DNA of 64,000 nucleotides from an uncultured Candidatus Saccharibacteria bacterium (GCA_964613715.1 CAZTJK010000001.1:9990-73989), one strand, 5' to 3'. Positions 3,122 to 43,889 are shown, counted from the first letter of the stretch. The notes: generated from the letters alone by a model not told the origin. Translations and numbers: made by a program.

Positions 3122-3162
3122 AGTAATCGTTATTACATAGTTTCATTTGCTATACTAAACCC

Positions 3163-3375
3163 ATGCAAAAACTAGCCACAAAAATATTCGTCTATTCATC
3201 GATTGTTTTCGGGATTATCGGGATGGCAGTAGTGCTGACATTGCCGAGCACTCAAGGGACGCAAACTTCAGATCTGCATATCGCCTTGATGAAGCTTTTG
3301 TTTGCGACAGTCTTCATCATATTGCCTTCATTCGCACTGAGTATTGCTGGTAAATATTTGAATAACAATCATTAG
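3163..3375 (+). CDS. Small two-helix membrane protein, hypothetical
   Basis: 70 aa with two hydrophobic helices. Leaderless architecture: TATACT at 3151-3156 lies 7 nt before the ATG. Confidence 0.45.
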   Translation: MQKLATKIFVYSSIVFGIIGMAVVLTLPSTQGTQTSDLHIALMKLLFATVFIILPSFALSIAGKYLNNNH

Positions 3376-3381
3376 GTTGGC

Positions 3382-3615
3382 ATGCCGCACGCAATCCCGG
3401 CAGATTTGAAAAAAGCTCTTGCTATCGACAAGGCTGCACAAACGGCATGGAAAAGTATCACCCCGCTTGCGCGCAATGAATGGATTTGCTGGACTGTTTC
3501 CGTCAAAAAGCCGGAAACGAGGCGCGACCATGTGCGGCGCGTCTGTTCAGAATTAAAAGAGGGGATGCGCCGGCCATGCTGCTGGGCTGGTTGCCCGCAC
3601 CGGAGAAAGGGTTAA
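3382..3615 (+). CDS. YdeI/OmpD-associated family protein (small, helical)
   Basis: ADLKKALAIDKAAQTAWKSITPLARNEWICWTVSVKKPETRRDHV is the typical signature of this family. Confidence 0.6.
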   Translation: MPHAIPADLKKALAIDKAAQTAWKSITPLARNEWICWTVSVKKPETRRDHVRRVCSELKEGMRRPCCWAGCPHRRKG

Positions 3616-3624
3616 AATATTCAT

Positions 3625-4227
3625 ATGGCACAATACACATGCCCAATGCATCCAGAAATATTGAGCGACAAGCCTGGCCGCTGCCCGAAATGCGGCATGG
3701 CGCTTGTACTGAAAGAGGATAAAAAACCTGCAGTACAGGCCAATGACCGCGGTCTCGGCATAATCACCTGGAAAAGCTATGTTCCGCTCATAGTCATTAT
3801 CGGGATTATCATGACTGCTTCAGCAATCACTTCGTCTTCACTCCCAGCCTTTCTGCTCTCATTCATGACAGGTTTCTTCATCGTCTTTTCAGGATTCAAG
3901 CTGATGGATCTGAGAGGCTTTGCAGAAGGGTATTCGACCTATGATCTGTTGGCTCAGAAATGGTTCGGATACGGCTATTGCTATCCCTTCATTGAGCTTG
4001 CGTTTGGTCTTCTTATGCTTGCTGGCTATCATCCGATCTGGCTCTTGTGGACAGAATTTGCCGTGATGACATTCAGTGGGATCGGCGTTGCGATCAAACT
4101 TGCAAAGCGAGAACCCTTCATGTGCGCATGCCTCGGCACATTTTTGAAAGTACCGCTCACCTCTATCACGCTTATGGAAGATTTTGGCATGGCTGTTTTA
4201 GCGCTCGTACTTATCTTTTTAAGATAA
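3625..4227 (+). CDS. Heavy-metal-binding-domain (YTCPMHP...CPKCGM) protein fused to a MauE/DoxX-type membrane domain
   Basis: N-terminus MAQYTCPMHPEILSDKPGRCPKCGMAL, followed by 4-5 transmembrane helices. Confidence 0.6.
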   Translation: MAQYTCPMHPEILSDKPGRCPKCGMALVLKEDKKPAVQANDRGLGIITWKSYVPLIVIIGIIMTASAITSSSLPAFLLSFMTGFFIVFSGFKLMDLRGFAEGYSTYDLLAQKWFGYGYCYPFIELAFGLLMLAGYHPIWLLWTEFAVMTFSGIGVAIKLAKREPFMCACLGTFLKVPLTSITLMEDFGMAVLALVLIFLR

Positions 4228-4253
4228 GAAATTTAGATTAGTTCAGGCAATCA

Positions 4254-4282
4254 TTGACAAAATACGAATTTTTCTATATGAT
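4254..4282 (+). promoter_or_regulatory. Promoter TTGACA-17nt-TATGAT ahead of a ~95-nt 5' UTR of the DEAD-box helicase gene
   Basis: Consensus -35 hexamer. Long leaders are common for cold-shock DEAD-box helicase genes. Confidence 0.5.
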
Positions 4283-4380
4283 GGGTGTGTTAGGTATTTC
4301 TCCTTGGTTTTTGGACGCTATCGAAACTGAAGAGATCGCTCATCGCCCTATACTTTTATTTTAAATGAGCCAGTTTCATT

Positions 4381-5607: not shown

Positions 5608-5616
5608 AAAAATAAA

Positions 5617-5643
5617 AAGAACGGTTCTACCGTTCTTTTTTTA
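5617..5643 (+). terminator. Intrinsic terminator: agaacggt-tct-accgttct followed by T7
   Basis: Hairpin followed by a U-run directly after the helicase stop. Confidence 0.7.
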
Positions 5644-5659
5644 TTGCTATACTATCTGC

Positions 5660-6967
5660 ATGCAAAAACAAAATTCCGGCTTCGTGCTGCCATTTATCGT
5701 CCTTCTGCTCGCGATCGTAAGTGGCGGCGTGTATTACTATCTACGCACCCAGGATATCGCACAGCAAAGCGTTCGCGTGGAGGAAAGCCTCGGTGTGCAA
5801 GATAACGCTGGAAATAATCCGGGACAAAATCCTTTGAATACAAATACTGAGCCTGCTTCGGAGAATCAGCCGGCGCAATCAAGCAATACTTCATCGCAGG
5901 CTTCTGCCTACGGCCCAGTCCTTTCTGAAAATGATCTGCTTGCTCTTGCTGATGACAAATACTCGTCCGGATTAGTGCCGCTCGGCGATTATAAATATGT
6001 GACGAGCGGCCCGAAGAAAGGATATATCTATCTCTGCAATGTGCGGAAAGACAATCCGGGTTCAGCCGTAAACGGCCCGTGGATGCATGGCACGGCATGG
6101 AATTTCCTCGAAAAGATATCAATACAAGGATCTGTCAGCTGGCCGAATGCTATTTTCTCGAATGTGATTTCTGGCATCATGCGCCTCTTGAAAGGCAATG
6201 ACTTGCCGATAAGCCACAATACCGGCACTTTCCCGGTACAATCGAGCGATCCTGCGCATGCATATGATGCGAATCCGAACAACATTTCCGCGCAATCATA
6301 TTCGCTTTCTATTCCTGCAAATCCGACGTATTCGGCGACGCCCTACTGCATGGGCATGGAAGTCGGCGTGATGCTTTCCGGCGTGCCGATATTCAATGGT
6401 TTCGATGCGGGACTTCGCGATGCACAAGCGCATGAGCTGCAGGATTCCTGCGAAGGGCATCCGCAAGGCGACGGCGAATACCATTATCACGGCCTTTCAA
6501 GCTGCATGAAGGATACAAGCGAGGCGACCGTGCTCGGTTATGCATTCGATGGCTTTCCGATCACCGGCCCGAAAGTAGCGGACAAGAAATATCTGACGAC
6601 CGAAGACCTTGATGAATGCCATGGCATTACGAGCGAGATCATTATGGACGGTAAGAAAAAAGTTACTTATCACTATGTCATGACGCAGGATTTCCCATAT
6701 TCAGCAAGCTGTTTCCGTGGAAAAGCAGTCGTGATGAAGCTTGATACTGGGACGACAGGCGGAACCCAAAGCGGTCAAAGCAGTGGCATGCAAACCCAGA
6801 ACCAAGTGCAGGGAAGCGGCGATCATGCGAGCCCACCACAACAAGCTATCGATGCTTGTTCCGGCAAGTACAGCGGTGCAAGTTGTTCGTTCAGCACGCC
6901 AAACGGTACAATATCAGGTTCCTGCGATACCCCGCCAGGCTCATCGCTTGCTTGTATTCCGCAATAA
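5660..6967 (+). CDS. Secreted or membrane-anchored YHYH-motif protein with N/Q/S/T-rich low-complexity segments
   Basis: N-terminal TM/signal region LPFIVLLLAIVSGGVYYYL. Motifs EYHYHG and DLDECHG. The Cys-rich C-terminus contains CSGKYSGASCSF...SGSCD...LAC. Leaderless architecture: TATACT lies 7 nt before the ATG. Confidence 0.55.
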   Translation: MQKQNSGFVLPFIVLLLAIVSGGVYYYLRTQDIAQQSVRVEESLGVQDNAGNNPGQNPLNTNTEPASENQPAQSSNTSSQASAYGPVLSENDLLALADDKYSSGLVPLGDYKYVTSGPKKGYIYLCNVRKDNPGSAVNGPWMHGTAWNFLEKISIQGSVSWPNAIFSNVISGIMRLLKGNDLPISHNTGTFPVQSSDPAHAYDANPNNISAQSYSLSIPANPTYSATPYCMGMEVGVMLSGVPIFNGFDAGLRDAQAHELQDSCEGHPQGDGEYHYHGLSSCMKDTSEATVLGYAFDGFPITGPKVADKKYLTTEDLDECHGITSEIIMDGKKKVTYHYVMTQDFPYSASCFRGKAVVMKLDTGTTGGTQSGQSSGMQTQNQVQGSGDHASPPQQAIDACSGKYSGASCSFSTPNGTISGSCDTPPGSSLACIPQ

Positions 6968-7037
6968 ATATTGTTTGGAAAAAGAAATAGTTCTTTGTCA
7001 ATTGTGCACTAAGCCTATCAAGGAGTAAAATGAACTA

Positions 7038-7655
7038 ATGACATACGACACACTCGCAACAGAAATAAGCATTAACAAAGCTGTGGGGGCACTGGCAGCG
7101 AAAAATTTTCATCCGCTTGTCGTCGCAAGCGGCGCTGAAGCCCTCGCAGAAATCAAGAAACTGATTCCATCAGGAAAATCAGTCATGAACGGAGCTTCGG
7201 TTACTCTCGAAGAGATTGGCTTTTTCGATTATTTGAAGACTGGAACACATGGTTGGAAGAACATGCATGCCCTGATCACCGCTGAACCCGATGCAGTCAA
7301 GCGCATGGAGCTGCGCAAGCAGGGAATTACCTCGGATTTTTATCTGGGTAGCGCCCATGCACTCACGGAAGCAGGTGATCTTGTCTTTGCATCAAATACT
7401 GGCAGCCAGCTGCCGCATCTGGCATTCACTTCGCCGAATATCATTCTGGTGGTCAGCACGCAAAAAATCGTGCCAGATCTCGACGAAGCCATGAAGCGCA
7501 TCCGGGAGCATATCATCCCGCTCGAGGATGAGCGCATGATGCATGCGTACAAAGCGCATACCGCGCAAAATAAAACCTTGATCCTTCATGGCGAAAGCCC
7601 GATCATGGGCAGAACGATCCATGTTATCATCGTCAAGGAAAAGCTTGGCTTCTAA
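7038..7655 (+). CDS. LUD-domain protein (LutC/YkgG-like)
   Basis: About 200 aa with a sequence pattern typical of the LutC family. A Shine-Dalgarno AAGGAG lies 12 nt upstream. Confidence 0.55.
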   Translation: MTYDTLATEISINKAVGALAAKNFHPLVVASGAEALAEIKKLIPSGKSVMNGASVTLEEIGFFDYLKTGTHGWKNMHALITAEPDAVKRMELRKQGITSDFYLGSAHALTEAGDLVFASNTGSQLPHLAFTSPNIILVVSTQKIVPDLDEAMKRIREHIIPLEDERMMHAYKAHTAQNKTLILHGESPIMGRTIHVIIVKEKLGF

Positions 7656-7911: not shown

Positions 7912-7933
7912 AATCTGGCCCTAATATGCTACT

Positions 7934-8497
7934 ATGCTTTTTCTTTTGAAATCGCATATGCATAAATCCTTATTTCACAATATCAAGCAAGATCGCGCGC
8001 CGGACATGCTCTCCCTTATCGTCGAGATCAGCGAAGGCGATTACAATAAATACGAATACGATCATGCGCTCGGCGTGCTTGCGCTCAACCGCGTACTCTA
8101 TGGCCCGCTCTTTTATCCAGTTAATTATTGCGATGTACCAGGTACTTGGAACGAGCATGATAATGACCCGCTCGATGCGATCCTTTTTTCTTCGCGGCCG
8201 ATCATTCCGGGTGCACTCGTCCATGGCCGCGTGATCGGCGCGCTTGAGATGGTAGACAATGGCAAGATCGACCACAAGATTGTCTGCGTCAATGCGAAAG
8301 ATCCGCGCTTCGAATATGTGAAGTCGATTGACGATCTGACTCCGTACCAGAAAAAAGACGTTACGACCTTCTTCGAGCTCTACAAAATTCCGGAAACCGG
8401 CGCAGATTCGGTGAAAATCGGGAAATACATGAATGCGAAGCAGGCTGGCGCTTTCATTACTCTATGTATCAAGGCCTACGAGAAAAAATTCTCCTAG
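7934..8497 (+). CDS. ppa: Inorganic pyrophosphatase (family I)
   Basis: YNKYEYDHALGVLALNRVLY...DPLDAILF...HKIVCV. TAATAT lies 7 nt before the ATG (leaderless). Confidence 0.9.
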   Translation: MLFLLKSHMHKSLFHNIKQDRAPDMLSLIVEISEGDYNKYEYDHALGVLALNRVLYGPLFYPVNYCDVPGTWNEHDNDPLDAILFSSRPIIPGALVHGRVIGALEMVDNGKIDHKIVCVNAKDPRFEYVKSIDDLTPYQKKDVTTFFELYKIPETGADSVKIGKYMNAKQAGAFITLCIKAYEKKFS

Positions 8498-8533
8498 CTT
8501 GTCTTTCAGGAAAGCGCCATTTATAATAGGCGC

Positions 8534-8962
8534 ATGGAACCGACTGCCGAAGAAAAGATAAAAAATATCCTCAATAAGAATGCTGCTCGCGAATTACCGA
8601 TGATGCATTATCATGGCGACACCGTGCGCGTCATATACCTCCTCATGGCGGTCATTCTCGTTATCACGACACCGTTTTTCAAATATAAGCTCCTGACACA
8701 GTCTTTCGGTGCTATCGTCGCCGTTATCGGCTTTTCAGTGTTCGGAGGGCTGACGAATCCGCGATCGCGAGCAGTCATCGTCATCGATTTCCTGATATCC
8801 ATCGCATCAGCTGTTATATTTGGATATCAAACCATCGTCACGTATGCCGGCTCATATGCAGATCTATTCTTCCTCACAAACGTCTTGTTGTTTGCCCTTG
8901 CCGTATTTTCATTGTATTTCAGCAGCAAGACGCTCCGGGGGAATCTCTTGTATCAGAAATAA
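8534..8962 (+). CDS. Hypothetical polytopic membrane protein
   Basis: Four predicted transmembrane helices. TATAAT lies 7 nt before the ATG. Confidence 0.45.
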   Translation: MEPTAEEKIKNILNKNAARELPMMHYHGDTVRVIYLLMAVILVITTPFFKYKLLTQSFGAIVAVIGFSVFGGLTNPRSRAVIVIDFLISIASAVIFGYQTIVTYAGSYADLFFLTNVLLFALAVFSLYFSSKTLRGNLLYQK

Positions 8963-10034: not shown

Positions 10035-11390
10035 TTAAATGCCTTGCAGCTTATTGATCTCCGTCGTCTGGATGGTATTGGCAAGCGCCATTACGCTTCG
10101 GCCATAGCTTGCGACAAACGAGGATTTGCTGCATGAGCTGCCGGAATAATATTTGCATGCAGCGTTCATCTCTGCGGTATAGCTTGATTTGTTTGCGCCA
10201 AGATCCCCAAGATAAATCGCCGCCGCCATGAATGCATGCTGTGGGTTCCACGGGTTCGGAATGCCTGAAATGCCGAGCGCTGAAGCAATGCGGGTTGCAA
10301 ACAGCATCCAGGTCGAGGCAATGAATTGCGCCGGGCCCATAGCGCCGCCCCAGCCGATCGCCTGCGGGCATGATACGACAGTCTTGTACGGGTCGACATT
10401 GATCGAGCTTGTGATGGTCAAAAACGGCGGCACATCGCGGGTCGGATTCATCACATTATCGAAATACTTCCCGGATTTGACGCTGAGGCCCGCGCCACTC
10501 TGGCTCGAGAGATAACAGGTGCCTTGATTGCTGCCGAGATTCGTCTCCTGGGTAAGGACCGCGAGCAGGAAGGCTGGATCAACGCCCGTGCGAGCATAGG
10601 CAGTCTTTGCATAGAGATATGCAGTACCGAATGGAATCGGGTTGGAGCCTCCTGCAAGCGAGAAGAGCTGCGCACTGATGGCATCCGCCTCCTTCTTTTT
10701 CTGGGCAAGCAGGGTGCCATATGCTTTTTCATTTTGCTTGCTGATGGACAAAAGCTGTTGACGAGCAGCCTGATCGCTCTTGATCTTTGCCTGCTCCTGC
10801 TGGATGACATAGCGCGCGTCGATTTCCGCATTGCGCTTTTCCACGAGGGTGTTCTTCGCATCGGTCGTATTCTTCTTATCCACGCCAAGCTGTGCTGAAA
10901 GATCGGAAAGCTGCGATTGGAGCATCTCGATCGTATTTGTATCATCGATAAATCCGGAAATGGTCGTGTTCGACAAGAGAACCTCGAGCAGGGAATTCGT
11001 CTCGGCTTTCGAAAGGGTGCGGAACATGCTTTCGATATCTTTTGTGTTGGCACTAATACGGTCTTCAAGATCATTGATCTGATTTTGCTTGTCGACGATA
11101 TTGTCGCCGAGCGTCTTGATGAGGAGGTTTTTCGCCTTTATATTGAGCTCTGCCGCCTTGATGCGCGCAGTCAACACATCGATATCACGCTGAATGGAAG
11201 CTGATTGAGATTGGGCCTTCGTGAGGTCTGCCTGCGCCTGTGCGGCTTCCGCTTGTACCGCTGCAAGCTGCGCTTCAAGCGCGGCGCGATCAGCAGGAGA
11301 TAGCGCTTGAGCCCCGGCAGGCTGGCATGGGGAAAGAAAAAAAATGCCGAAGACGGCAAGGGCGAATGTCCTGAAGAACCAAGATTTCAT
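10035..11390 (-). CDS. Secreted coiled-coil protein with a C-terminal lytic transglycosylase-like (MltB/SLT_2-type) domain
   Basis: Signal peptide, then a ~200-aa coiled coil, then ...DPAFLLAVLTQETNLG...GWGGAMGPAQFIASTW... Confidence 0.6.
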   Translation of the reverse strand: MKSWFFRTFALAVFGIFFLSPCQPAGAQALSPADRAALEAQLAAVQAEAAQAQADLTKAQSQSASIQRDIDVLTARIKAAELNIKAKNLLIKTLGDNIVDKQNQINDLEDRISANTKDIESMFRTLSKAETNSLLEVLLSNTTISGFIDDTNTIEMLQSQLSDLSAQLGVDKKNTTDAKNTLVEKRNAEIDARYVIQQEQAKIKSDQAARQQLLSISKQNEKAYGTLLAQKKKEADAISAQLFSLAGGSNPIPFGTAYLYAKTAYARTGVDPAFLLAVLTQETNLGSNQGTCYLSSQSGAGLSVKSGKYFDNVMNPTRDVPPFLTITSSINVDPYKTVVSCPQAIGWGGAMGPAQFIASTWMLFATRIASALGISGIPNPWNPQHAFMAAAIYLGDLGANKSSYTAEMNAACKYYSGSSCSKSSFVASYGRSVMALANTIQTTEINKLQGI

Positions 11391-11496
11391 AAGGCTATTA
11401 TAGCAAAGACGGAGCGTCTGTGTACTCTGACTTGTTGCAATAGAGTAAGAAGGGTTATAATAGTGAAGGTACGTTTATTCATTAATCTTTTGATTT

Positions 11497-12699: not shown

Positions 12700-13020
12700 T
12701 TAGAAATGCGGAGGACGGAAATGTATAGCTCCATCGTCTCCTCCGCCACCCCCTGAAAACAAAGGACGCAGAAGAAGAAAAAGAAGATAATATCCGAACA
12801 GACATATCCCTATTTCCCAGGCGAGGCTCTTGGCCTTCTTCATAAATTTTAATTCGATGAAAATGAGCAGCAGCCAGACTGCAAATACTGACAGGCTGCG
12901 AATGAGGTGCTCGAATCCGAATAAAAACCCAAGAACGAGCACCACAACGGCAATCATCAGGCCATATACGAAGATAGAGCCTATGATGGTCCAGAACCAA
13001 TCCTTCACTGACTTAGCCAT
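12700..13020 (-). CDS. Membrane protein, hypothetical (Gly5 tract at C-terminus)
   Basis: Start set at MAKSVKDW..., which has a strong Shine-Dalgarno AAGGAG 6 nt upstream. Three transmembrane helices. Confidence 0.5.
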   Translation of the reverse strand: MAKSVKDWFWTIIGSIFVYGLMIAVVVLVLGFLFGFEHLIRSLSVFAVWLLLIFIELKFMKKAKSLAWEIGICLFGYYLLFLLLRPLFSGGGGGDDGAIHFRPPHF

Positions 13021-13089
13021 TCCATGCTCCTTCACGTATGATTTTGAATCTGCCTTGAGCGTAGTAAAATAGGCACATATTGTCAAACC

Positions 13090-13632
13090 ATGAAAAAGCT
13101 TATTATCGCCGAAGTGAAGACGGAATCGCCGTTCGGATTCAAATCCGAAAAGGCCTGGGATGAGCTATTTGCTATCGCAGACAGGGTGGGTGACATGATA
13201 TCGATCCATACCGATTCCCGCTGGGGCGGGTCATTCGACTTGATCCGAAAAGCAAGAAGACTGACGAAAAAGCCGATACTAGCAAAAGGAATCCATCCGG
13301 CTGATGCGGATATTGAAAAAGCGATCGAGGCAGGAGCAGATTATGTGCTCGTCGTCGGCCGCATTCCGAAGATCCATCTTGAGAAGTGCCTTATCGAGCC
13401 GCGTTCGCTTGCCGAACTTGCCAAGATTCCGGCAAATCTGAAAGCTGTCTGGAATAGCCGGGATCTTGCGACCGGCGGCCTGAAAAAAGAGACATTTGCC
13501 AAAGCACGAAAGCTCTTTTCCGGCTGGCTCTGCCAGGCAAGCAATATACGAACGAAGGCTGATATCGAGCCTGGGGCGGATGCGGTGCTTGTCGGCAGCA
13601 ATCTTGAAACGTTCGCGCAATCCGTCGCATAA
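13090..13632 (+). CDS. Minimal indole-3-glycerol-phosphate synthase-like (TrpC family) TIM-barrel protein
   Basis: IAEVKTESPFGF...ISIHTDSRWGGSFDLIRKARRLTKKPILAKGI...GADYVLVV...WNSRDLATG...GADAVLVGSNL tracks the TrpC motifs but in only 180 aa. No other trp genes are present in the window. Confidence 0.55.
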   Translation: MKKLIIAEVKTESPFGFKSEKAWDELFAIADRVGDMISIHTDSRWGGSFDLIRKARRLTKKPILAKGIHPADADIEKAIEAGADYVLVVGRIPKIHLEKCLIEPRSLAELAKIPANLKAVWNSRDLATGGLKKETFAKARKLFSGWLCQASNIRTKADIEPGADAVLVGSNLETFAQSVA

Positions 13633-13649
13633 GAGTATATAATCACCAT

Positions 13650-14150
13650 ATGCTTACGATATTCAATGTCATATCGAAAGATGGATTCATCGCTGATACA
13701 GAGGGCAGGGAAGATTTCATCCCTGAAGCGATTTGGGAATATGATATCGAGCTCTATCAGCGCTACGACACGCTCATCATGGGAAAACATACTTATGCAG
13801 CAATACAGGCATATGATGATGCAGCAAAAAAACTTCTCGAGGATTTGCCGATACGGAAAATCGTGCTATCGCATGATCAGGATCTGAAATTAAAAAACGG
13901 CTATGAAGCATGCATCTCGCTTGAAGCGGCCCTTTTGAAAGGGAAACAGTGTCTTCTTTCGAGCGGGCCAAGTACGAATGACAGAGCAATGAAGCAAAAG
14001 CTTGTTGATACGGTGATCCAATATGAGCTTTCGGAACAAATCGGTAATGGCATTCGCCCGTTCACATTTGATGTGACGAATATGATGCAGGTGGTCTCTC
14101 ACGTTAAAATGCCGTATGGCATCCTCTCGGAATATATCGTCAAGAAGTAA
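13650..14150 (+). CDS. Dihydrofolate reductase-like protein (RibD_C family), second paralogue
   Basis: MLTIFNVISKDGFIA...GKHTY... TATAAT lies 7 nt before the ATG. Confidence 0.6.
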   Translation: MLTIFNVISKDGFIADTEGREDFIPEAIWEYDIELYQRYDTLIMGKHTYAAIQAYDDAAKKLLEDLPIRKIVLSHDQDLKLKNGYEACISLEAALLKGKQCLLSSGPSTNDRAMKQKLVDTVIQYELSEQIGNGIRPFTFDVTNMMQVVSHVKMPYGILSEYIVKK

Positions 14151-14199
14151 ATCCGTCTCGGAAGAGAAGGTGGCGGCATAAACGTGCTAGTATTTTTAT

Positions 14200-14802
14200 A
14201 TGGAGTATTCCGAATACAAGGATGAGGAGCTTATCAGGCTATCGAGCCGCGACGAGCAGGCATTCAATGAGATCGTCCGGCGATACTTGTCACCGCTCTA
14301 TAATTTCATATATCGCATACTCAAAAACAACCTCGATGTGGAAGATATCGTCCAGGATGCATTCCTGAAGGCATGGAAGCATGCCCATACCTTCCGCCCG
14401 CCGCAAAAATTCAAGACATGGCTCTATGCGATCGGGCATCATGCTGCAATCGATCATGCGCGCAAAAAGCGCCCGCTGCTGTTCTCTGACTTTGAGACAG
14501 ATGATTCGCCTGTCTCGTTTGCAGACACCATTGCCGATACGGAAGCGCTTGCTGACGAAATTTTTGAGCGCGCCGAACTAAAAACAGCCGTTGAAACGCT
14601 GCTTGGCAAACTCCCGGCACCGTATCGGGAAGTGATACTCCTGCGCTATCATGAAGAGCTCGGGTTCGAGGATATTGCATCAATACTCGGCAAACCTGCA
14701 AATACGGTCAAAAGCCAACATCGCCGGGCCCTTCTTTTCCTGAAGAAAGAGATTGATGCTGCACCGAAACAGCCGCTTCGCACGTATAAGAAAGCGATAT
14801 GA
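14200..14802 (+). CDS. ECF-type RNA polymerase sigma factor
   Basis: Region 2 is DIVQDAFLKAWKHAHTF...WLYAIGHHAAIDHARKK. Region 4 is YREVILLRYHEELGFEDIASILGKPANTVKSQHRRAL. Confidence 0.85.
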   Translation: MEYSEYKDEELIRLSSRDEQAFNEIVRRYLSPLYNFIYRILKNNLDVEDIVQDAFLKAWKHAHTFRPPQKFKTWLYAIGHHAAIDHARKKRPLLFSDFETDDSPVSFADTIADTEALADEIFERAELKTAVETLLGKLPAPYREVILLRYHEELGFEDIASILGKPANTVKSQHRRALLFLKKEIDAAPKQPLRTYKKAI

Positions 14803-19552: not shown

Positions 19553-20404
19553 TTATTTGAAAAGATCGAAAAATTTGACCGGATCGATCGAAATGCCACC
19601 GATCCGGACGCTCACATGCAGATGTGGTGCATTTGCATAGCCTGTTTCGCCGGAAAGGCCAATACGCTGTCCCGGAAGGACAAGCTGTCCCTGATTGACG
19701 AATATCTTCGACAAGTGCATATAAAACGTCTCGAGCCCGAGCCCATGATCGACAACTACCGTCTTGCCATAGACAGTGAAATTTTTCACGAGCCGCGCAA
19801 CGCCGCGATTTGCAGCATAGACTGGTGTACCGATTGCCGCCTGAAAATCAGTACCCTTATGAACGATAGTATACGCGCCGGTCTGACGATCGTATCCATA
19901 AGGATCGGTAACAGTCGCATATGACAGAGGATACGAAAACGACTTTGTCCAAAAAGCTTTCGCGCCGGTTGTAAGCGATGCAAGAATCATATTTTCTATG
20001 CTGAGCGTATCAACTACCTTCGCCTGATTTGCCGGGGCATTGCCGCCGAGTTTTTCGGGAATACCAAGCGGCGCTCGATACATCTGGCGTTCTTGTACTG
20101 CAAGCGTCGTGCTGCTTTCCCGTCCATCAGTAAGGCGCACAAAAATAGGGAATGTGCCTGTCGCATGGCGTATATCGATGCCGAGGAGCACAGACGGCTC
20201 TGCATGATATATGAATATAGGAAGTATTTTTCCATCGAACACTATGCGCTGTATTTCAGCTTTGGTAACGCCCTGCACATGAATGAATGCTGGTTCGCCT
20301 TGCAGCACCGTATCCGGCGTGACGGATACCGAAAAAATTCCTTGGGCACTGGCACAGAGGGGGAGGAAAAAACCGATTGCGAATAGGGAAAAGCGAAGGT
20401 TCAT
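19553..20404 (-). CDS. M23 family metallopeptidase (secreted)
   Basis: Signal peptide. HKGTDF...VDHGLGLETFYMHL...HLHVSV are the M23 zinc-ligand motifs. Confidence 0.85.
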   Translation of the reverse strand: MNLRFSLFAIGFFLPLCASAQGIFSVSVTPDTVLQGEPAFIHVQGVTKAEIQRIVFDGKILPIFIYHAEPSVLLGIDIRHATGTFPIFVRLTDGRESSTTLAVQERQMYRAPLGIPEKLGGNAPANQAKVVDTLSIENMILASLTTGAKAFWTKSFSYPLSYATVTDPYGYDRQTGAYTIVHKGTDFQAAIGTPVYAANRGVARLVKNFTVYGKTVVVDHGLGLETFYMHLSKIFVNQGQLVLPGQRIGLSGETGYANAPHLHVSVRIGGISIDPVKFFDLFK

Positions 20405-20442
20405 AAGCTTATTCTACCATGGCACAGAGGCTTATTTGACAA

Positions 20443-20471: not shown

Positions 20472-20556
20472 ATTAAGAAGTATCTGCGAATGCAAGGATA
20501 GTCGTCTTTCGTTTCAAAAGAACTCTTAAGTTTATTAGTTCGTAACGAAGTTCAGA

Positions 20557-20867: not shown

Positions 20868-20883
20868 TTGCTATACTATTTCC

Positions 20884-21630
20884 ATGTCCGAATACTACAA
20901 AGGCACGCGAGGTGCGGCATGGAATTATGGCGGAGGTAATTGGAAGTTAAGCCGGTCGAAAATCGACCTGTTTCTCGAGTGTCGGCGCTGTTTCTACTTG
21001 GATAATAAGCTCGGGGTCAAGCGCGTCCCGGGTTTCCCGTTCTCGATCAACTCATCGGTGGACCATCTGCTGAAGCAGGAGTTTGATACGCATCGGGCAA
21101 AAGGCGAGAAACACCCGATCCAGAAGGAATACGGCATAGATGCCAAGCCTGCGCCGCATGCAGAACTCGATGAATGGCGCAGGAATTTCGGCGGCGTGCG
21201 ATACATGCATGCGCCGACCGGGTTCGTCGTGACCGGCGCGATCGACGATCTCTGGGTGAATAGCAAAGGGGAATATATCGTCGTCGACTATAAAGCGACA
21301 GCAAAAGAAGAGGCGGTGAAAGAGCTCGACAAGGAGTGGCAGGATGGGTACAAGCGACAGATGGAAGTGTATCAGTGGCTCTTGCGCAAAAACGGACTTA
21401 CGGTCTCGGATACCGGATACTTCGTCTACTGCACGGGCAGGATGGATCGCCAGGCTTTTGACAAGCGGATAGATTTTGACGTCAATCTCATCGCATATAG
21501 GGGCAATGACGCATGGGTGGAAAAGACTCTGACAGATATTAAGAAGTGTCTGGACGGCGCCATGCCGAAATCAAATGAAAATTGCGACTGGTGCGCATAC
21601 CGCGCCGCTGCTGAAAAAGCCGAGAACTAA
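20884..21630 (+). CDS. Cas4/RecB-like PD-(D/E)XK nuclease with putative Fe-S cysteines, stand-alone
   Basis: D...EYIVVDYKAT is a D-x(n)-E-x-K core. Cys residues occur at the N-terminus (CRRC) and C-terminus (C...CDWC), as in Cas4 and AddB. No cas genes or CRISPR repeats are nearby. Confidence 0.6.
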   Translation: MSEYYKGTRGAAWNYGGGNWKLSRSKIDLFLECRRCFYLDNKLGVKRVPGFPFSINSSVDHLLKQEFDTHRAKGEKHPIQKEYGIDAKPAPHAELDEWRRNFGGVRYMHAPTGFVVTGAIDDLWVNSKGEYIVVDYKATAKEEAVKELDKEWQDGYKRQMEVYQWLLRKNGLTVSDTGYFVYCTGRMDRQAFDKRIDFDVNLIAYRGNDAWVEKTLTDIKKCLDGAMPKSNENCDWCAYRAAAEKAEN

Positions 21631-21851
21631 CGATATTCCTGTTTGCTGTAGCGAATACTCGTAGCGTGAGCCATTGCTTCTTCCGGAGAAACTTCATTTT
21701 TATCAAGGCGAGCAAGAAGCTTTTGGAGTGCGGGCAGTTCGGAATCATTCGTACCCATGACGCTGCATTCCTGCATCATCAGGCCGATATGATTTTTGGC
21801 AGCTTCTTTTTCCTTTCCGGTATCAATAAGAGTCGATATATGCTCATGCAT
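21627..21851 (-). CDS. Small hypothetical protein
   Basis: 74-aa ORF convergent with the nuclease gene. No Shine-Dalgarno sequence and no recognisable similarity. Confidence 0.3.
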   Translation of the reverse strand: MHEHISTLIDTGKEKEAAKNHIGLMMQECSVMGTNDSELPALQKLLARLDKNEVSPEEAMAHATSIRYSKQEYR

Positions 21852-22164
21852 GCGACCATAATATCATAAGGAAAACTTTGTTGATAACGAGTAATTTGAC
21901 TTTTTGCGGCCTGTCAGCTACACTGTCTGCAGCTTAAGAGAGGAATGAGTTGCGGGCGAAAGCGGCCAAAAAGTAAGCTGGTTAAAGTCTTGCTTAAAAA
22001 AATAAGATAAATTTTGAGAGAGGAATAAGATACCTTGATGGGAGAGGTGTCTTTTTGTGTTGTGTATAGGCTTCCTCGAATCGAACCTGGCATTTTTCTT
22101 ACTTTTTTACGCAGGAACGGCTGGCAAGCGGGACATTATTATTAGCAATCAGCATTCAGCAACT

Positions 22165-29100: not shown

Positions 29101-29124
29101 AATACGGGCTCTGTTTGGACAGGT

Positions 29125-30858: not shown

Positions 30859-30881
30859 GCGATAAACATTACACAGGACAT

Positions 30882-32060
<1,179 letters not shown>

Positions 32061-32090: not shown

Positions 32091-32111
32091 ATGCTAAAAT
32101 AACCGCTACTT

Positions 32112-34982
32112 ATGACCTTCGAGGAACGCTATAAAAGCCTCAATTTGAGCCAAAAACGGGCTGTAGACGCCATTGAGGGGCCAGTCATGGTCATTGCCGG
32201 TCCGGGCACGGGCAAAACAACTATATTGACTATGCGCATAGCCAATATCCTGAAGCGTACGGACACTCCGGCACATGGCATTCTTGCTATCACCTACACT
32301 TCTGCGGGTGTAAGAGCAATGCGCGAGAACCTGCGCACTATCATAGGCAGCCGAGCGGATGAAGTGGCAATACACACCTTCCATGATTTTGCTTCCGCGA
32401 TGATCGCCGAATATCAGGATCATTTCTTGCATTTGAAAGACATGCGTCTCATTTCGGATGTTGAACAAGAATCGCTCGTGCGTACGATTCTTCTCGACCC
32501 GGCATTCGCAGCGCTGCGACCAGCCGGAAGACCGGATACCTTCGTGGAAGGCATCTTACGCGCCATTGATAACGCCAAGCGCGATGCGCTCACGCCAGAT
32601 ATGGTCGTTGCATACGCGAAAAGCGAAATCGAACGGATCGAACACGATGAAGTATCGCGTTCGACAAGGGGAGCGAGCAAAGGAAAGCTCAAGGCCGAGG
32701 CTCTTGAAGCGATCGGAAAATGCGAGCGGACCCTGCTCTTTGCCAAGGTCTATGCTGAATACGAAAAGCGAAAATCTGCAGAACACATGATGGATTTCAA
32801 CGACCTTATCATGGAGTTCCTGCTCGCGCTCAAGCATGACGAGCTCTTCCTCCGGCTCATCCAGGAGCGCTTCCTCTATGTTCATGTCGACGAGCATCAG
32901 GATACAAACGACGCGCAGAATCTCATCATCGGCATGATCGCCGAATTCTTCGATGTGCCGAACATATTCATCGTCGGCGACGAGAAGCAGGCCATCTATC
33001 GTTTCCAGGGCGCATCAGTGGAAAATTTTATGCTCCTGCAGAAACGCTATCCCGCAATGCAGATCATATCCCTCGATACGAATTACCGATCGCATCAGGG
33101 GATTCTCGACACGAGCTTTTCCATGATTGAGCACAACTACGCCGAAGGAGAGCACACGGACCTGCGCATACCCCTAGCATCCGGCAAAAAAGAAGCAGCG
33201 GCCCCTATCGTGATCGCAATGGGAGAAAATACCGCTGCAGCGGATGCATATCTCGTAGAAGAATTGAAGCGCCTGAGAACAAGAGAGCCAGCTTCGACTA
33301 TTGCTATCATCACCAGACGGAACCGCGAGCTCGAACGGGTATTGCGGCTTTTGGAATCGAACGGTATCCCAGTATCTTCGGAACGGAGCATCGATATTTT
33401 CAAGCATCCCCTTGGCGTAGTATTCTTCGACCTTATCGAATACCTTGCCGATCCTGCGCGCACCGATGCACTAGGAAAAACGATGGCGGCAGGGCTCTGG
33501 CATTTGACGCTTGCAGAAACGGCGGAACTCTCGCGCCTGCTGCGAAGCGGCAAAGACGCCAACCTGGAAACGCGGCTCTCGGGCCTATCGAATATCCTGA
33601 AGCAGAAAGCGGCTGATGATCCGCTCGGCTTTCTTATCACTGCCTGCCGGGAATCAGGCTTTGCGGATATTGCATCGCGCGATCCTGCATATGTGTATGT
33701 TTGGCGGGGCATCATGACGCTTGCAGAATCGCTCGTACGCGATCGCGGACTCAAAAGCCCGATTACGCTCATGGAGGCCCTCTTGGAATATCGGCGTTCG
33801 GCTGAATCAAAAATGATAAAAGTATCTGTCGGCGCGCCTGATTTTCCAATACGAGCCATGACGGCTCATGGCAGCAAAGGCCTCGAGTTCGACTATGTAT
33901 TCCTCCCATACGCGACCGAGGAAGCGTGGGTGAGTAGGCCGCGCGGTGCTTATTTCGTATTGCCGAAAAAACAGGTCTCGCACGATGATATCCGCGATAC
34001 TCGGCGCCTCTTTTATGTAGCGCTGACCCGCGCACGGACTGGCCTGACGATACTCACTGCGAGAGAGGAATCTGACGGATCAGCACTTACGCCCCTGCGA
34101 TTCCTCGATGAGCTCGGCAGCAAGCATATATCTCATGCACGATTGCCGCGCCTTGAAACTGTGCTCCCGGCCTTGGAAATGCAAGATGCGAAAAAAAAAT
34201 CAGCCAATGCCCTTACAGATCTTGCCAAGCATGTGCTTCTCTCATCAGGCCTGTCGCCGACTGCACTCAATCATTTTCTCGAAAGCCCGCTCGTGTTCCT
34301 CCAGGAAAGTATCCTGAAGCTCCCACAAGCTCCATCCGTATCCGCAGAAAAGGGTAGGGCTATGCATTTCGCCCTTGAATCTGCTTGGCGCCTTGCAGAA
34401 AAGACCCCTGCAACGCTCGCGGCGACCATTCAGGAGAAGACCGCGGAATATCTTGATGAATCATTCCTGCCATCACGCGAAAAAGAAATAGTGAGGCAAG
34501 AGCTTGCTGAAAATGCGGTGGCGGTAGCACACGCTTTGATAGGCCATTTCAATACTGCCGGCCTCGCACGCAGCGAATATATGCTTGAATCAATATTCGA
34601 AGGGTCATATGAAGGAATGCCGGTGCGGATCCCGATACGCGGAAAGCTCGATCTTATCATCGACAACGGCAATGTGATTTCAATCTTCGATTATAAGACG
34701 CGGCAGGGAATGTCAGTCGCTGAAATAAAAGGCGAGACAAAAAGCTCGAACGGCGACTATTTCCGGCAGCTTGTATTCTACGCACTCCTTGCCGGCAATG
34801 AGTCGCGGTGGAAGATGAAACGAAAGGAGGTATCCCTGGTATTTGTTTCGCCCGACACGAAAGGCCGCTGCCCGGTAATAACGCTCGATATCCGCGAAAA
34901 AGACATGGAAAAGCTCCGCGCTGAAATCCAGTCACTGATCGACTGCGTCTGGGGCGGTTCGCTGCCGGAATCCCTGTTCTAG
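32112..34982 (+). CDS. UvrD-family helicase fused to a C-terminal PD-(D/E)XK (RecB-like) nuclease domain (AddA/PcrA-like)
   Basis: Walker A AGPGTGKTT. UvrD motifs VDEHQDTN and VGDEKQAIYRFQGA. The C-terminal segment GKLDLIIDNGNVISIFDYKT is the nuclease core. Confidence 0.8.
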   Translation: MTFEERYKSLNLSQKRAVDAIEGPVMVIAGPGTGKTTILTMRIANILKRTDTPAHGILAITYTSAGVRAMRENLRTIIGSRADEVAIHTFHDFASAMIAEYQDHFLHLKDMRLISDVEQESLVRTILLDPAFAALRPAGRPDTFVEGILRAIDNAKRDALTPDMVVAYAKSEIERIEHDEVSRSTRGASKGKLKAEALEAIGKCERTLLFAKVYAEYEKRKSAEHMMDFNDLIMEFLLALKHDELFLRLIQERFLYVHVDEHQDTNDAQNLIIGMIAEFFDVPNIFIVGDEKQAIYRFQGASVENFMLLQKRYPAMQIISLDTNYRSHQGILDTSFSMIEHNYAEGEHTDLRIPLASGKKEAAAPIVIAMGENTAAADAYLVEELKRLRTREPASTIAIITRRNRELERVLRLLESNGIPVSSERSIDIFKHPLGVVFFDLIEYLADPARTDALGKTMAAGLWHLTLAETAELSRLLRSGKDANLETRLSGLSNILKQKAADDPLGFLITACRESGFADIASRDPAYVYVWRGIMTLAESLVRDRGLKSPITLMEALLEYRRSAESKMIKVSVGAPDFPIRAMTAHGSKGLEFDYVFLPYATEEAWVSRPRGAYFVLPKKQVSHDDIRDTRRLFYVALTRARTGLTILTAREESDGSALTPLRFLDELGSKHISHARLPRLETVLPALEMQDAKKKSANALTDLAKHVLLSSGLSPTALNHFLESPLVFLQESILKLPQAPSVSAEKGRAMHFALESAWRLAEKTPATLAATIQEKTAEYLDESFLPSREKEIVRQELAENAVAVAHALIGHFNTAGLARSEYMLESIFEGSYEGMPVRIPIRGKLDLIIDNGNVISIFDYKTRQGMSVAEIKGETKSSNGDYFRQLVFYALLAGNESRWKMKRKEVSLVFVSPDTKGRCPVITLDIREKDMEKLRAEIQSLIDCVWGGSLPESLF

Positions 34983-35780: not shown

Positions 35781-35873
35781 GAGAATGCGTGATTATGCTG
35801 ATAACTTCAGGCAATTGTATCATGGGGAAATGGAGTTGCAAAAAAGGCCTTTTTCAGGTAGTATAAGCGGTCT

Positions 35874-36191
35874 ATGGAATTCGCAGTCATCAAAACGGGC
35901 GGCAAGCAGTATACGGTCTCCAAGGGCTCATCCATCAAGGTGGAAAAGCTTTCCGATACCGCAAAAGTCGGCGACAAGGTCACCTTTGACCAGGTGCTTC
36001 TCGTCGACGACGGCAAGAACGCCACTATCGGCACGCCGTATATCAAGGGTGCAAAAGTGGAGGCGAAAATCGAGGAAATTGGCCGCAACAAGAAAATCAT
36101 GGTCATGCATTACAAGCAGAAGAGCCGCTATTTCAAGAAAAATGGCCACCGCCAGCCATTCTTCAAGGTAAAGATCGACTCGATCAAATAA
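35874..36191 (+). CDS. rplU: 50S ribosomal protein L21
   Basis: MEFAVIKTGGKQYTVSKG.... TATAAG lies 7 nt before the ATG. The gene is solitary; rpmA is not adjacent. Confidence 0.9.
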   Translation: MEFAVIKTGGKQYTVSKGSSIKVEKLSDTAKVGDKVTFDQVLLVDDGKNATIGTPYIKGAKVEAKIEEIGRNKKIMVMHYKQKSRYFKKNGHRQPFFKVKIDSIK

Positions 36192-42233: not shown

Positions 42234-42263
42234 AAAAATCCCCCGATCGGGGGATTTTTTTAT
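42234..42263. terminator. Bidirectional intrinsic terminator: aaaaaaatcccccgatcgggggattttttt
   Basis: A perfect 8-bp GC-rich stem flanked by A7 and T7. Shared by rplI (+) and rpmA (-). Confidence 0.8.
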
Positions 42264-42532
42264 TTGATGTTGACGATATTGCGTCGAGTCATCGTCGAAT
42301 CGAAATTATTCTTTCGCTTCGTTCTGAATTCGACGATACCATCCTTGAGAGCAAAGAGAGTGTGATCCTTTCCTTTGCCGACGCCCGCGCCTGCGAGCGT
42401 ATCAGTGCCTTTTTGGCGGAGGATGATCTGGCCTGTGCGGATAGCCTGACCATCGTTCACCTTCACGCCAAGGTATCGCGGATTCGAATCTCGGCCGTTT
42501 TTAGATGAGCCTGCTGCCTTTTTATGTGCCAT
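42260..42532 (-). CDS. rpmA: 50S ribosomal protein L27
   Basis: [24 protein letters not shown]... Confidence 0.9.
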
Positions 42533-42565
42533 GGGATTGGGTTATTACGTGCTATAATCAGCCGA

Positions 42566-42997
42566 ATGAGTATAAAAGATTTTGGCCGAAAAATCAAGCC
42601 TCTGATAGGCAAGCTCACTGCTCGGATACGAAACCTCAAAGCTACCCCCGATATCCAGGATGATATCTCGATCGTTGTCCTCATCATCCTTGTGGGCCTG
42701 TCCTCCTTCGGCCTTGGCAGGCTTTCCAGCCTGGAAAAAGAGCAGCCGCCGATCGTCGTGGAAAAAACCGCCACAGCAGCTCTGGCAGGGGATACTACCC
42801 CAATGATAACCCGAGTAGGGGGAGCTCCGAACCAAAAAGGCCTCGTATTCGCTTCAAAATCAGGCACAAAATACTACTATCCCTGGTGTTCGGGGGCTGC
42901 CCGGGTCAAGGAAGAGAATAGGAAATGGTTCCCGAGCGTAGCACTCGCCAAAGCAGCAGGCCTGACCCCAGCAGCCAATTGTCCTGGGCTAGAATAA
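42566..42997 (+). CDS. Membrane-anchored protein with a degenerate Ada-like metal-binding domain
   Basis: Start set at MSIKDFG, with TATAAT 8 nt upstream. After a TM helix, YYYPWCSGAARVKEENRKWFPSVALAKAAGLTPAANCP aligns to N-Ada (CRPSCRARHALRENVSFYANASEALAAGFRPCKRC) but keeps only 2 of its 4 Cys residues. Confidence 0.5.
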   Translation: MSIKDFGRKIKPLIGKLTARIRNLKATPDIQDDISIVVLIILVGLSSFGLGRLSSLEKEQPPIVVEKTATAALAGDTTPMITRVGGAPNQKGLVFASKSGTKYYYPWCSGAARVKEENRKWFPSVALAKAAGLTPAANCPGLE

Positions 42998-43125
42998 GTA
43001 TTATCAAATTTTCTATCTTATGGCTCTATAGAGCCATATTATTCGTATCAGGACCTGCTAGACTATTGACATAAATAATTTACTATGCTATCATAGTATC
43101 AAATCCGTTTCGACGGGTTTTTATT

Positions 43126-43599
43126 ATGATAGAAATCATCACCACATCAATCTTCGTTTTTTCATCGATTTACAGCGCTCCGGTAACGGACGGGACTGAT
43201 ACTACGCCAATTGTGCCTCAGGTCCTTGCACCAAAGGCAGCAACGACCACTGCAGACATTCCGACAAACAAGGGAATTGAGGAGCAGGTTCGCAATTACT
43301 TCAAGGATGAACCGATCCTTGCGGACATTGCCCGCTGCGAATCAACCTTCCGTCAGTATGATGAGAATGGCAATATTCTTCGTGGCACAGTCAACAAGGG
43401 CGATATCGGCGTCATGCAGATCAACAAGTATTATCATGCCGATAAGGCGAAAAGCCTCGGCTATGACCTTGAGACGGTCGAAGGCAATATGGCCTATGCT
43501 CGATACCTCTACAACAAGGAAGGCGGCCAGCCATGGATCTCGTCATCGAAATGCTGGAGCAAGAGTACTGCTTCGTCAAATCAAGTAGCGATGAAGTAA
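43126..43599 (+). CDS. Secreted small lysozyme-like/SLT-like protein
   Basis: Signal peptide. ARCESTFRQY...GDIGVMQINKYYH matches the catalytic-Glu 'ES' and 'G-MQI' motifs of soluble lytic transglycosylases. Confidence 0.5.
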   Translation: MIEIITTSIFVFSSIYSAPVTDGTDTTPIVPQVLAPKAATTTADIPTNKGIEEQVRNYFKDEPILADIARCESTFRQYDENGNILRGTVNKGDIGVMQINKYYHADKAKSLGYDLETVEGNMAYARYLYNKEGGQPWISSSKCWSKSTASSNQVAMK

Positions 43600-43630
43600 C
43601 AAAAGCCCGCACAAGCGGGCTTTTGTTTTG
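43600..43630 (+). terminator. Intrinsic terminator: aagcccgc-acaa-gcgggctt followed by T-rich tract
   Basis: Hairpin followed by ttttgttttg. Confidence 0.7.
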
Positions 43631-43775
43631 TGTAAAGACATGAGGGAATAGTGGTGTTTGAAATAGTATATATGTCGCACAATATATCTTTGCGACACTA
43701 TATACTAGAGGATTCTAGCCATTCTTGAAAGACAAGACTTTCCTTGTCATGGCAAGCTTTTGGTATAATTATGCT

Positions 43776-43889
43776 ATGAAAAAGGTCAAAGTCACGCGCA
43801 GCGCAGTCAGCGGAAAATTCGTCACAAACAAATACGCGAAGCGCAAACCGAAAGTTACCGTCCGCGAGACGGTGCGCAAAAGAAAATAA
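43776..43889 (+). CDS. Small very basic protein (37 aa), leaderless
   Basis: MKKVKVTRSAVSGKFVTNKYAKRKPKVTVRETVRKRK. An extended -10 tgGTATAAT ends 7 nt before the ATG. Below the length cut-off of the ORF track. Confidence 0.35.
   Translation: MKKVKVTRSAVSGKFVTNKYAKRKPKVTVRETVRKRK

Follow-up and report, generated by a model that had tools for sequence, protein, structure and literature searches.

Putative leaderless transcription units with extended -10 elements 7 nt before the start codon in a lineage of Patescibacteria

The window analysed here is a 64-kb stretch of DNA (GCA_964613715.1, CAZTJK010000001.1:9990-73989) from an uncultured Candidatus Saccharibacteria bacterium, with a GC content of about 50%. 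It carries a rpoB-rpoC-dnaG-rpoD array (22057-32060), a gene for an ECF sigma factor, MacB/HlyD transporter genes, a ribosomal-protein/rpoA block and envelope genes that include FtsW and two M23 peptidases. Relatives of its RpoC were found only among metagenome-assembled Patescibacteria (the candidate phyla radiation, CPR) labelled Paceibacterota, Parcubacteria, Taylorbacteria or Zambryskibacteria; CAWDSG010000002.1 matches best, at 86% amino-acid identity. The short uL13 protein of the window (117 amino acids, aa) agrees with a trait given for Parcubacteria (PMC9297842). Our subject is a hexamer, TAnnnT, often extended by an upstream TG (TGnTAnnnT), that ends exactly 7 nucleotides (nt) before the start codon of many of these genes. 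An earlier annotation made without database searches, here called the sequence-only reading, took this hexamer for a -10 promoter element that would place the start of transcription at the A of the start codon in at least ten genes without a Shine-Dalgarno (SD) sequence. Genes are named below by the coordinate of their start codon, with (-) for the minus strand.

A curated map of the window holds 72 genes. In 17 of them TAnnnT ends exactly 7 nt ahead of the start codon (offset 7), and 15 of these cases are convincing. Among them are the previously listed genes 3163, 5660, 7934, 8534, 13650, 14200, 20884 and 43776; a further listed gene, 42566, has TATAAT at 8 nt, just as had been stated, and the list fails at rplU (35874), where TATAAG lacks the final T and is not a TAnnnT hexamer. 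Genes 2519, 3625, 7038, 11390(-), 20404(-), 21851(-) and 55670(-) are convincing cases that had been missed. The remaining two, 13090 and 49026(-), were downgraded to weak. The TAAATT of 49026(-) lies within a 2-nt gene junction. At 13090 the element is TATTGT, standing 7 nt before the plus-strand ATG in the divergent region 13014-13092, and part of it gives, as its reverse complement, the TTGACA used as a -35 element by the leadered, SD-bearing gene 13020(-).

Blind gene calls, based on a self-trained codon-usage score and taking the first ATG, GTG or TTG of each open reading frame (ORF) as its start, gave 63 window genes. The hexamer stands at offset 7 in 14 of them, while offsets 13-40, taken as background, average 1.6 each (binomial P=5.7e-10), and for TGnTAnnnT the count is 7 against 0.25. 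The same pipeline run on 50 kb of E. coli K-12 gave no such peak (2/66 genes). The extended pattern TGNTANNNTNNNNNNATG (TGnTAnnnT-N6-ATG) has 11 matches in the window, 10 of which are gene starts, compared with 1.54 ± 1.28 in shuffled sequence, and none of 100 shuffles reached 11. One longer sequence, TTGCTATACTA, is found exactly at 3147, 5644 and 20868, and with one mismatch (TTGCTATAATA) at 11396(-), where 0.33 occurrences would be expected. A threefold recurrence had been noted before and stands for TTGCTATACTA itself; the preceding 'tttgc' is exact in two copies only, gene 5660 having 'attgc'.

A peak of this kind could arise as an artefact of composition or bookkeeping, from AT-rich intergenic DNA, from the stop codons of upstream genes or from starts picked by eye. 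The bare pattern TANNNTNNNNNNATG is indeed only marginally enriched (33 matches against 24.0 ± 5.3 in shuffles), and stop codons do contribute to the hexamer where the gap to the upstream gene is 4 or 9 nt. However, the starts were first codons called blind, with neighbouring offsets as an internal control; the E. coli control has no peak, shuffling fails to reproduce the extended pattern, and the peak stays at 14-18% at gaps of at least 12 nt and for divergent genes. Additionally, 23 of the 33 matches to TANNNTNNNNNNATG open ORFs of at least 60 aa, compared with 2-14 at other spacings. An artefact is effectively refuted by the offset controls, and we consider it scarcely credible.

The comparison set consisted of 80 related Patescibacteria/Paceibacteria loci (L003-L082, 1.43 Mb) with 876 blind gene calls. 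Here TAnnnT stands at offset 7 in 129 of the 876 starts, against 30.8 per background offset (P=3e-42), and the TGn-extended form in 51 against 2.6, a shoulder of 20, 16, 9 and 7 cases following at 8-11 nt. Counted over the window and the 80 loci, the distribution of distances from the -10 hexamer to the start codon peaks at 7. At least one offset-7 case occurs in 61 of the 81 sequences. When the 939 proteins were clustered into 380 families and one random member was taken from each, 61 of the 380 had the hexamer at offset 7; 89 families have at least one motif-bearing member. The start codon is ATG in 124 (87%) of the 143 pooled offset-7 genes, GTG in 11 and TTG in 8, and all window cases use ATG. 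Orthologues of the nuclease gene 20884 keep the spacing with a different spacer sequence (TATACT-N6-ATG in L006 and tgaTATAAT-N6-ATG in L003). Judged from these sequences, the putative leaderless-type architecture characterizes the lineage (Patescibacteria, class Paceibacteria) and not the window alone.

Across the 143 offset-7 genes, T reaches 0.55 at -15 and G, whose background is about 0.15, reaches 0.51 at -14. These two bases correspond to the TG of an extended -10 element; this TG is present in 10 of the 17 window cases. The hexamer has the interior consensus TA(T/A)AAT, and T, T and G are enriched at -35, -34 and -33, where a 17-bp spacer would put a -35 element. In E. coli promoters of the extended -10 type ('TGn') and in the -16 region that Gram-positive bacteria have (TRTG), the TG likewise lies one base upstream of the hexamer, and the -35 element is dispensable. 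Position -1 is a pyrimidine in 75% of the offset-7 genes and G in 5%, and this pyrimidine forms a Y-R-Y start-site triplet with the A at +1 and the T at +2. Such a triplet is a conserved start element, and start sites in 49 bacteria are centred 7 bp downstream of the -10 element (PMC12641261).

The primary sigma factor RpoD encoded in the window shows 48% identity to its E. coli counterpart in regions 2-4, and in the alignment of the two it keeps the residues for contact with the -10 element, with the TG (PVHMVET; E. coli H455/E458) and with the -35 element. H455 and E458 belong to region 3.0 and are assigned to the TG, and region 2.4 is assigned to the -10 element. A gene for an RRM_1 RNA-binding protein (88 aa, 20557-20823) has an invariant promoter of the TTGACA-17-TATAAT type in nine genomes (TATGAT in the window), which, together with the contact residues of RpoD, indicates that the sigma-70 consensus of E. 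coli is valid in this lineage.

SD sequences were sought as core 4-mers at -17 to -4, with the segment from -45 to -32 as control. They are not enriched in the window (6/63 genes against 5 in the control segment) or in the relatives (58/876 against 67, with 19 against 15 for 5-mers), and the E. coli run, with 40/66 against 3, validates the pipeline. None of the 6-nt spacers of the listed leaderless-type genes contains an SD sequence, in agreement with the sequence-only reading. Its further proposal that SD-led and leaderless modes coexist is statistically unsupported, SD cores being at control level in both sets. Only three real starts have an SD-like motif at a suitable distance, namely 55804 (SemiSWEET, AAGGAGG), 13020(-) (AAGGAG) and 45476(-) (CAGGAG). 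Gene 7038 had also been counted as SD-led; the distance between its AGGAG and the ATG is 12 nt, however, and TAAAAT stands exactly at -12 to -7, so that the leaderless class fits it better. On these counts, SD-led initiation would be rare at most in the window and its relatives. The 3' end of 16S rRNA was not found in the window and the 82 loci searched, and an Rfam scan of the window gave one tRNA (1941-2011) and no rRNA.

Genes outside the leaderless class, which in the window mostly lie inside operons, have an upstream region that is A-rich (0.40-0.48) and G-poor, with T at -1. The same holds for all called genes of the window and of L003-L082: the stretch from -16 to -2 is A-rich and G-poor whether or not the motif is present, with A enriched from -16 to -3, and T occurs at -1 at 0.44-0.54 and G at 0.05-0.08, including genes without a nearby -10 hexamer. 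The T at -1 and the A-rich stretch may form a Kozak-like context for SD-independent initiation. Two short ORFs, at 389-469 (+, 26 aa) and at 38462-38346 (-, 38 aa, MRKRKHRRRKKKKSS..., very basic), have AAGGAG with a 6-nt spacer and are putatively coding; they may be the two small ORFs to which the earlier annotation had assigned SD sequences.

The position of the motif relative to transcription units was examined in the curated map, where genes counted as heads if they had a divergent neighbour or lay at least 35 nt from the gene upstream. The offset-7 motif is found at 15 of 36 heads (~42%) and at 2 of 33 internal genes (Fisher P=6.5e-4), and the heads number 19 of 36 (~53%) once distances of 8-12 nt, for leaders of 1-5 nt, are admitted as well. 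Motifs lie directly behind terminator hairpins at 5614-5640, before 20884 and before 32112. The hairpin at 5614-5640 is a perfect 12-bp stem with A-runs and T-runs on both strands, as in a bidirectional terminator, and it abuts the extended -10 element of gene 5660, which leaves no room there for a -35 element. In the related loci, overlapping genes are nearly free of the motif (2/53), and it occurs at 14-20% in all classes with a gap of 0 nt or more.

A fixed distance to the start codon might also be kept by a translation signal other than SD on leadered mRNAs, namely an AT-rich binding site for the ribosome or for protein S1 (the 'group B' type). If SD sites are absent, some other translational signal is needed, and the A-rich, G-poor stretch and the T at -1 extend to genes without the motif; moreover, the relatives carry the motif about as often at close same-strand genes (14-20%) as at separated or divergent ones (14-18%). 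Nevertheless, a TG at -15/-14 and a TTG at -35 to -33 are unexpected of an RNA signal. The excess at heads in the window, the near absence at overlapping genes and the motifs that follow terminator hairpins straight away also speak against one. The 'internal' cases of the relatives can be explained by rough gene calls and very compact intergenic regions. The TG, the -35 TTG, the pyrimidine at -1, the preference for heads in the window, the conservation among orthologues and the sigma residues together argue for sigma-70 promoters rather than ribosome-binding sites, and a translation signal seems to us an unlikely explanation.

It had further been claimed that the spacing independently confirms the choice of start codons. 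For most genes this agrees with N-terminal alignments to Pfam and NCBIfam models and with signal peptides; for 7934 and 43776 the support is weak. The family models begin at residues 2-5 of the products of 2519 (RibD_C), 3625 (HMBD), 14200 (ECF sigma), 35874 (L21), 55670 (tRNA-synt_1b) and 61091 (uL13, residue 4); a signal peptide or transmembrane (TM) helix lies at the very N-terminus of those of 3163, 5660, 11390 and 20404, and 15 of the 18 starts checked have no in-frame start farther upstream. If the promoters were real and the adjacent ATGs wrong, translation would begin at a downstream in-frame codon and the mRNAs would be leadered. Gene 7934 would suit this, its codons 5 and 9 being an in-frame TTG and ATG and its pyrophosphatase homology starting near residue 20, as would the 37-aa ORF at 43776, which has no homologue, and 13650 and 8534, whose N-termini are without domain evidence. 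Against it, the family alignments just listed begin at residues 2-5, and a downstream start would cost 3163, 5660, 11390 and 20404 their signal or TM segments, which begin at residues 1-5. The orthologues of 20884, 35874 and 42566 share their first residues and diverge at once in the upstream DNA, and a sharp peak at a single spacing from the first in-frame codon is not expected if that codon is irrelevant. We regard a general shift to downstream starts as very improbable.

Considering the geometry of the motif, its enrichment, its association with heads, its conservation, the recognition residues of the sigma factor and the absent SD enrichment, we infer that these hexamers are sigma-70 -10 elements set so that transcription starts at the A of the ATG and yields leaderless mRNAs, and we give this reading a probability of roughly 0.8. 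Translation of these mRNAs would then follow the leaderless mechanism. The core of the sequence-only reading (-10 elements, a start at the A, no SD) is consistent with all computational tests run, with the start sites themselves being predictions.

Several observations weigh against this interpretation. The start of transcription at the A and the use of the start codons are predictions from sequence. The spacing of 7 nt had been called invariant, but rplU, 42566, 61091 and 32112 have their hexamer at 8-12 nt. The -35 signal is weak, and a scan for a generic -35/-10 consensus over 1-40 kb gave no excess of promoters (26 against 24.3; 17 against 16.9), a result that is uninformative if, as proposed, promoters here depend on the extended -10 element and not on the -35 element. 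The 80 related loci are all centred on rpoC and have many orthologues in common; their 876 genes are therefore not independent, and the count collapsed by protein family is the fairer one. Among the roughly called genes of these loci, close same-strand neighbours (gaps of 12-39 nt) have the motif in 14%, about as frequently as separated genes, and a translational signal would give the same result. At gaps of 0-11 nt, matches occur almost only at 4 and 9 nt, and these cases are to be discounted because the upstream stop codon provides the T or TA of the hexamer.

Besides the offset-7 class there are near-leaderless candidates, with the hexamer ending at 8 nt (42566), 10 nt (rplU and 61091) or 12 nt (32112). 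The rplU gene keeps TTGCAA-17-TAGTAT (TAATAT in L003) in the window, L010, L009 and L003. From the end of the hexamer to the ATG there are 10 nt in the window and 9, 9 and 8 nt in the three loci, and TIGR00061 aligns to its product, L21, from residue 3. The TATAAG previously proposed as the -10 element of rplU was rejected, as it has G at the most conserved -10 position and the conserved TTGCAA-17-TAGTAT lies 3 nt farther upstream. On this comparison, TTGCAA-17-TAGTAT is probably the rplU promoter and TATAAG at 7 nt a coincidence; the mRNA would probably carry at most 3 nt of leader or start at the A from an off-modal distance. Orthologues of 32112 have TAnnnT exactly 7 nt before ATG or GTG in at least 14 of 24 cases, as read off the upstream sequences, again with a diverging spacer sequence, and the orthologue of 42566 in L021 has the same MSIKD N-terminus, with tgaTACAAT ending 10 nt upstream. 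The promoters and genes of the window are collected in Table 1.

Table 1. Candidate promoters and associated genes in the window. Plain distances (7 nt, 8 nt) are from the end of the hexamer to the start codon; 'new' marks offset-7 genes not named in the sequence-only reading.
Element	Position	Strand	Gene and remarks
tggTACTATagaagtATG, extended -10, 7 nt	2504..2521	+	RibD_C-domain gene 2519-3121; Pfam RibD_C from residue 2; new
tgcTATACTaaacccATG, extended -10, 7 nt	3148..3165	+	70-aa membrane protein 3163-3375; no upstream in-frame start; N-terminal TM helix
ggtTAAAATattcatATG, TTGCCC 16 nt upstream	3610..3627	+	HMBD/MauE-domain gene 3625-4227; Pfam HMBD from residue 4; new
tgcTATACTatctgcATG, right behind terminator hairpin 5614-5640	5645..5662	+	YHYH-domain protein 5660-6967; N-terminal TM/signal segment
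gagTAAAATgaactaATG	7023..7040	+	LUD-domain gene 7038-7655
cccTAATATgctactATG, without TG	7919..7936	+	inorganic pyrophosphatase gene 7934-8497; alternative in-frame starts at codons 5 and 9
attTATAATaggcgcATG, TTGTCT 17 nt upstream	8519..8536	+	142-aa hypothetical protein 8534-8962
tgcTATAATagccttATG	11388..11405	-	SLT_2 transglycosylase with signal peptide, 11390-10035; new
gtaTATAATcaccatATG, 17 nt past stop of upstream gene	13635..13652	+	166-aa protein 13650-14150
tgcTAGTATttttatATG	14185..14202	+	ECF sigma factor gene 14200-14802; NCBIfam models from residue 5
tggTAGAATaagcttATG	20402..20419	-	M23 peptidase with signal peptide, 20404-19553; new
tgcTATACTatttccATG, behind hairpin and T-run	20869..20886	+	PD-(D/E)XK/Cas4-like nuclease gene 20884-21630
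tgaTATTATggtcgcATG	21849..21866	-	74-aa hypothetical protein 21851-21627; new
tgcTATAATcagccgaATG, extended -10, 8 nt	42550..42568	+	143-aa protein 42566-42997
tggTATAATtatgctATG, extended -10, 7 nt	43761..43778	+	putative 37-aa very basic ORF 43776-43889
tgcTATCATcagttcATG, TTGAAA 16 nt upstream	55668..55685	-	class-Ib (Trp/Tyr) tRNA synthetase gene 55670-54684; Pfam tRNA-synt_1b from residue 5; new
tgcTAAAATaaccgctacttATG, behind terminator, hexamer 12 nt upstream	32092..32114	+	UvrD/PD-(D/E)XK helicase-nuclease gene (32112); predicted leader ~4-5 nt
tcgTATAATacaatcaccATG, TATAAT ending 10 nt upstream	61089..61109	-	uL13 gene 61091-60738; near-leaderless candidate
TTGCAA 35836-35841, 17 nt, TAGTAT 35859-35864, 9 nt, ATG	35836..35876	+	rplU (promoter); hexamer ends 10 nt before ATG
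	30882..32060	+	rpoD, primary sigma-70 factor; Pfam regions 1.1-4

Further observations concern individual loci. Nine genomes (window 20436-20560; L004, L005, L007-L011 and L021) share a conserved nucleotide sequence in the leader of the RRM_1 gene, about 90 nt long, with a mean column identity of 75% and long invariant runs such as TAAGAAGTA and TAGTC-TCTTTC. Only a weak consensus fold is predicted for this leader, at -3.4 kcal/mol and with 2 covarying pairs, and a folded RNA structure is not claimed; the conservation may instead reflect an autoregulatory binding site. At 43066-43128, TTGACA-17-TATCAT with TG forms a near-consensus promoter, behind which comes a terminator-like hairpin and T-run (43101-43120) that ends 5 nt before the ATG (43126) of a 157-aa SLT-like gene; the hairpin could be an attenuator, or the start at 43126 could be mis-called. 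The 37-aa ORF at 43776-43889 (MKKVKVTRSAVSGKFVTNKYAKRKPKVTVRETVRKRK) is extremely basic and stands behind a perfect tggTATAAT-N6-ATG. A search of its 54-aa extended frame against an index of 5.8 billion proteins gave no match, and a local tblastn search of the 80 related loci returned low-complexity, lysine-rich matches only.

The rpoB, rpoC, dnaG and rpoD genes lie head to tail with gaps of 18-24 nt, and in most relatives dnaG (67 loci) and rpoD (63 loci) are found 3' of rpoC. In well-studied bacteria such as E. coli, dnaG-rpoD belongs to a separate operon. The start of rpoB is ambiguous (22027-22165): the longest ORF begins at GTG 22057, just past a hairpin and T-run (22027-22053), the first ATG stands at 22165, and homology to the relatives sets in at residue ~27-40. 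In a clamp-loader-like (DNA polymerase III) gene, TAGAAT after TGC (831-844) overlaps the first ATG (842), and GTG 752 is an alternative start.

Based on these results, we propose that the housekeeping sigma-70 holoenzyme would recognize mostly extended -10 promoters (TGnTAnnnT), with the -35 element weak or absent, and that RNA polymerase would start at the A of the ATG to give an mRNA without a 5' untranslated region or a ribosome-binding site. The 5'-terminal AUG would be bound directly by a ribosome loaded with initiator tRNA (the leaderless route), and internal genes would be reached by SD-independent initiation on unstructured A-rich RNA or by re-initiation. A more far-reaching version, in which the clade has dropped SD/anti-SD pairing entirely, its heads being leaderless from extended -10 promoters and its other genes translated via unstructured A-rich RNA or re-initiation, is put forward tentatively, as something a little less probable than an even chance. 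The grounds for it are the background SD frequency in 939 genes and the strong leaderless signal, with the 3' end of 16S rRNA lying outside these data.

Comparable arrangements are known from other bacteria. Group C of GeneMarkS-2 has its Pribnow box 6-8 nt away from where the first genes of operons begin, accounts for 25-50% of transcripts and consists mainly of Actinobacteria (773/859) and Deinococcus-Thermus (37/38); Parcubacteria are unmentioned in the main text of that study (PMC6028130). The window and its relatives resemble this group in the fixed short distance between the -10 box and the start codon, with a sharp peak at 7 nt and a shoulder at 8-10 nt, and differ from it in that group C models internal genes with a ribosome-binding site, whereas here the upstream region is only A-rich and G-poor. 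Among Actinobacteria (Mycobacterium tuberculosis, M. smegmatis, Corynebacterium and Streptomyces), too, a TANNNT -10 element lies 6-8 nt upstream of the first genes of operons, the -35 element is weak, leaderless genes have no SD sequence and a quarter to half of the transcripts belong to this class (PMC6028130). However, their GC content is 57-72%, compared with about 50% here in a lineage of the CPR/Patescibacteria; their leadered genes use SD sequences (PMC6028130, Fig. 3C), whereas no gene class here is enriched for them, and the TG of the extended -10 element, present in about half of the cases here, distinguishes the present promoters from theirs. In Deinococcus deserti, 167 of 262 genes with mapped starts are leaderless (de Groot et al. 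2014, cited in PMC6028130), and the leaderless mRNAs have been proven by RNA-seq and proteogenomics, whereas the present case is built on sequence geometry and comparative genomics.

Bacteroidota (Flavobacterium johnsoniae, PMC6847099; group B) share the genome-wide scarcity of SD sequences and the A-rich, G-poor region upstream of leadered and internal genes. Their mRNAs are leadered, and their upstream motif is found at first and internal genes alike; the fixed-distance motif described here, unlike theirs, has a TG and a -35 TTG and is largely confined in the window to the heads of transcription units. Extended -10 promoters elsewhere usually drive leadered transcripts, whereas here they stand 7 nt from the start codon. 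The conservation of H455/E458 of region 3.0 in the window RpoD is a feature in common with the extended -10 system of E. coli. In Parcubacteria, an anti-SD motif was detected in only 48%, and the mode of translation start was left open (Tsurumaki et al. 2022, PMC9297842). The only set of CPR transcription start sites that we found cited is that of Nanosynbacter lyticus (PMC12641261, Table 1). Within the literature searched, leaderless genes were not described for the CPR (Patescibacteria, Saccharibacteria, Parcubacteria).

In summary, the mechanism itself is known, and what is new is its predicted occurrence in this CPR lineage. Since the mechanism is familiar, the value of the finding lies chiefly in its wider occurrence among lineages and in its use for annotation. 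Starts in such genomes are misplaced by gene callers built around SD sequences, and the rule TGnTAnnnT-N6-ATG would pin both start codons and promoters in genomes that are uncultured and poorly annotated. The lineage would also be a third major bacterial one, beside Actinobacteria and Deinococcus-Thermus, in the debate on whether leaderless initiation is ancestral. If the SD-free reading is true, it would be the mRNA-side counterpart to the reported lack of the anti-SD motif in about half of the Parcubacteria (PMC9297842) and would make leaderless initiation a core trait of the reduced CPR ribosome. Many leaderless units combined with no use of SD sequences would offer a testable answer to how such reduced ribosomes select their starts.

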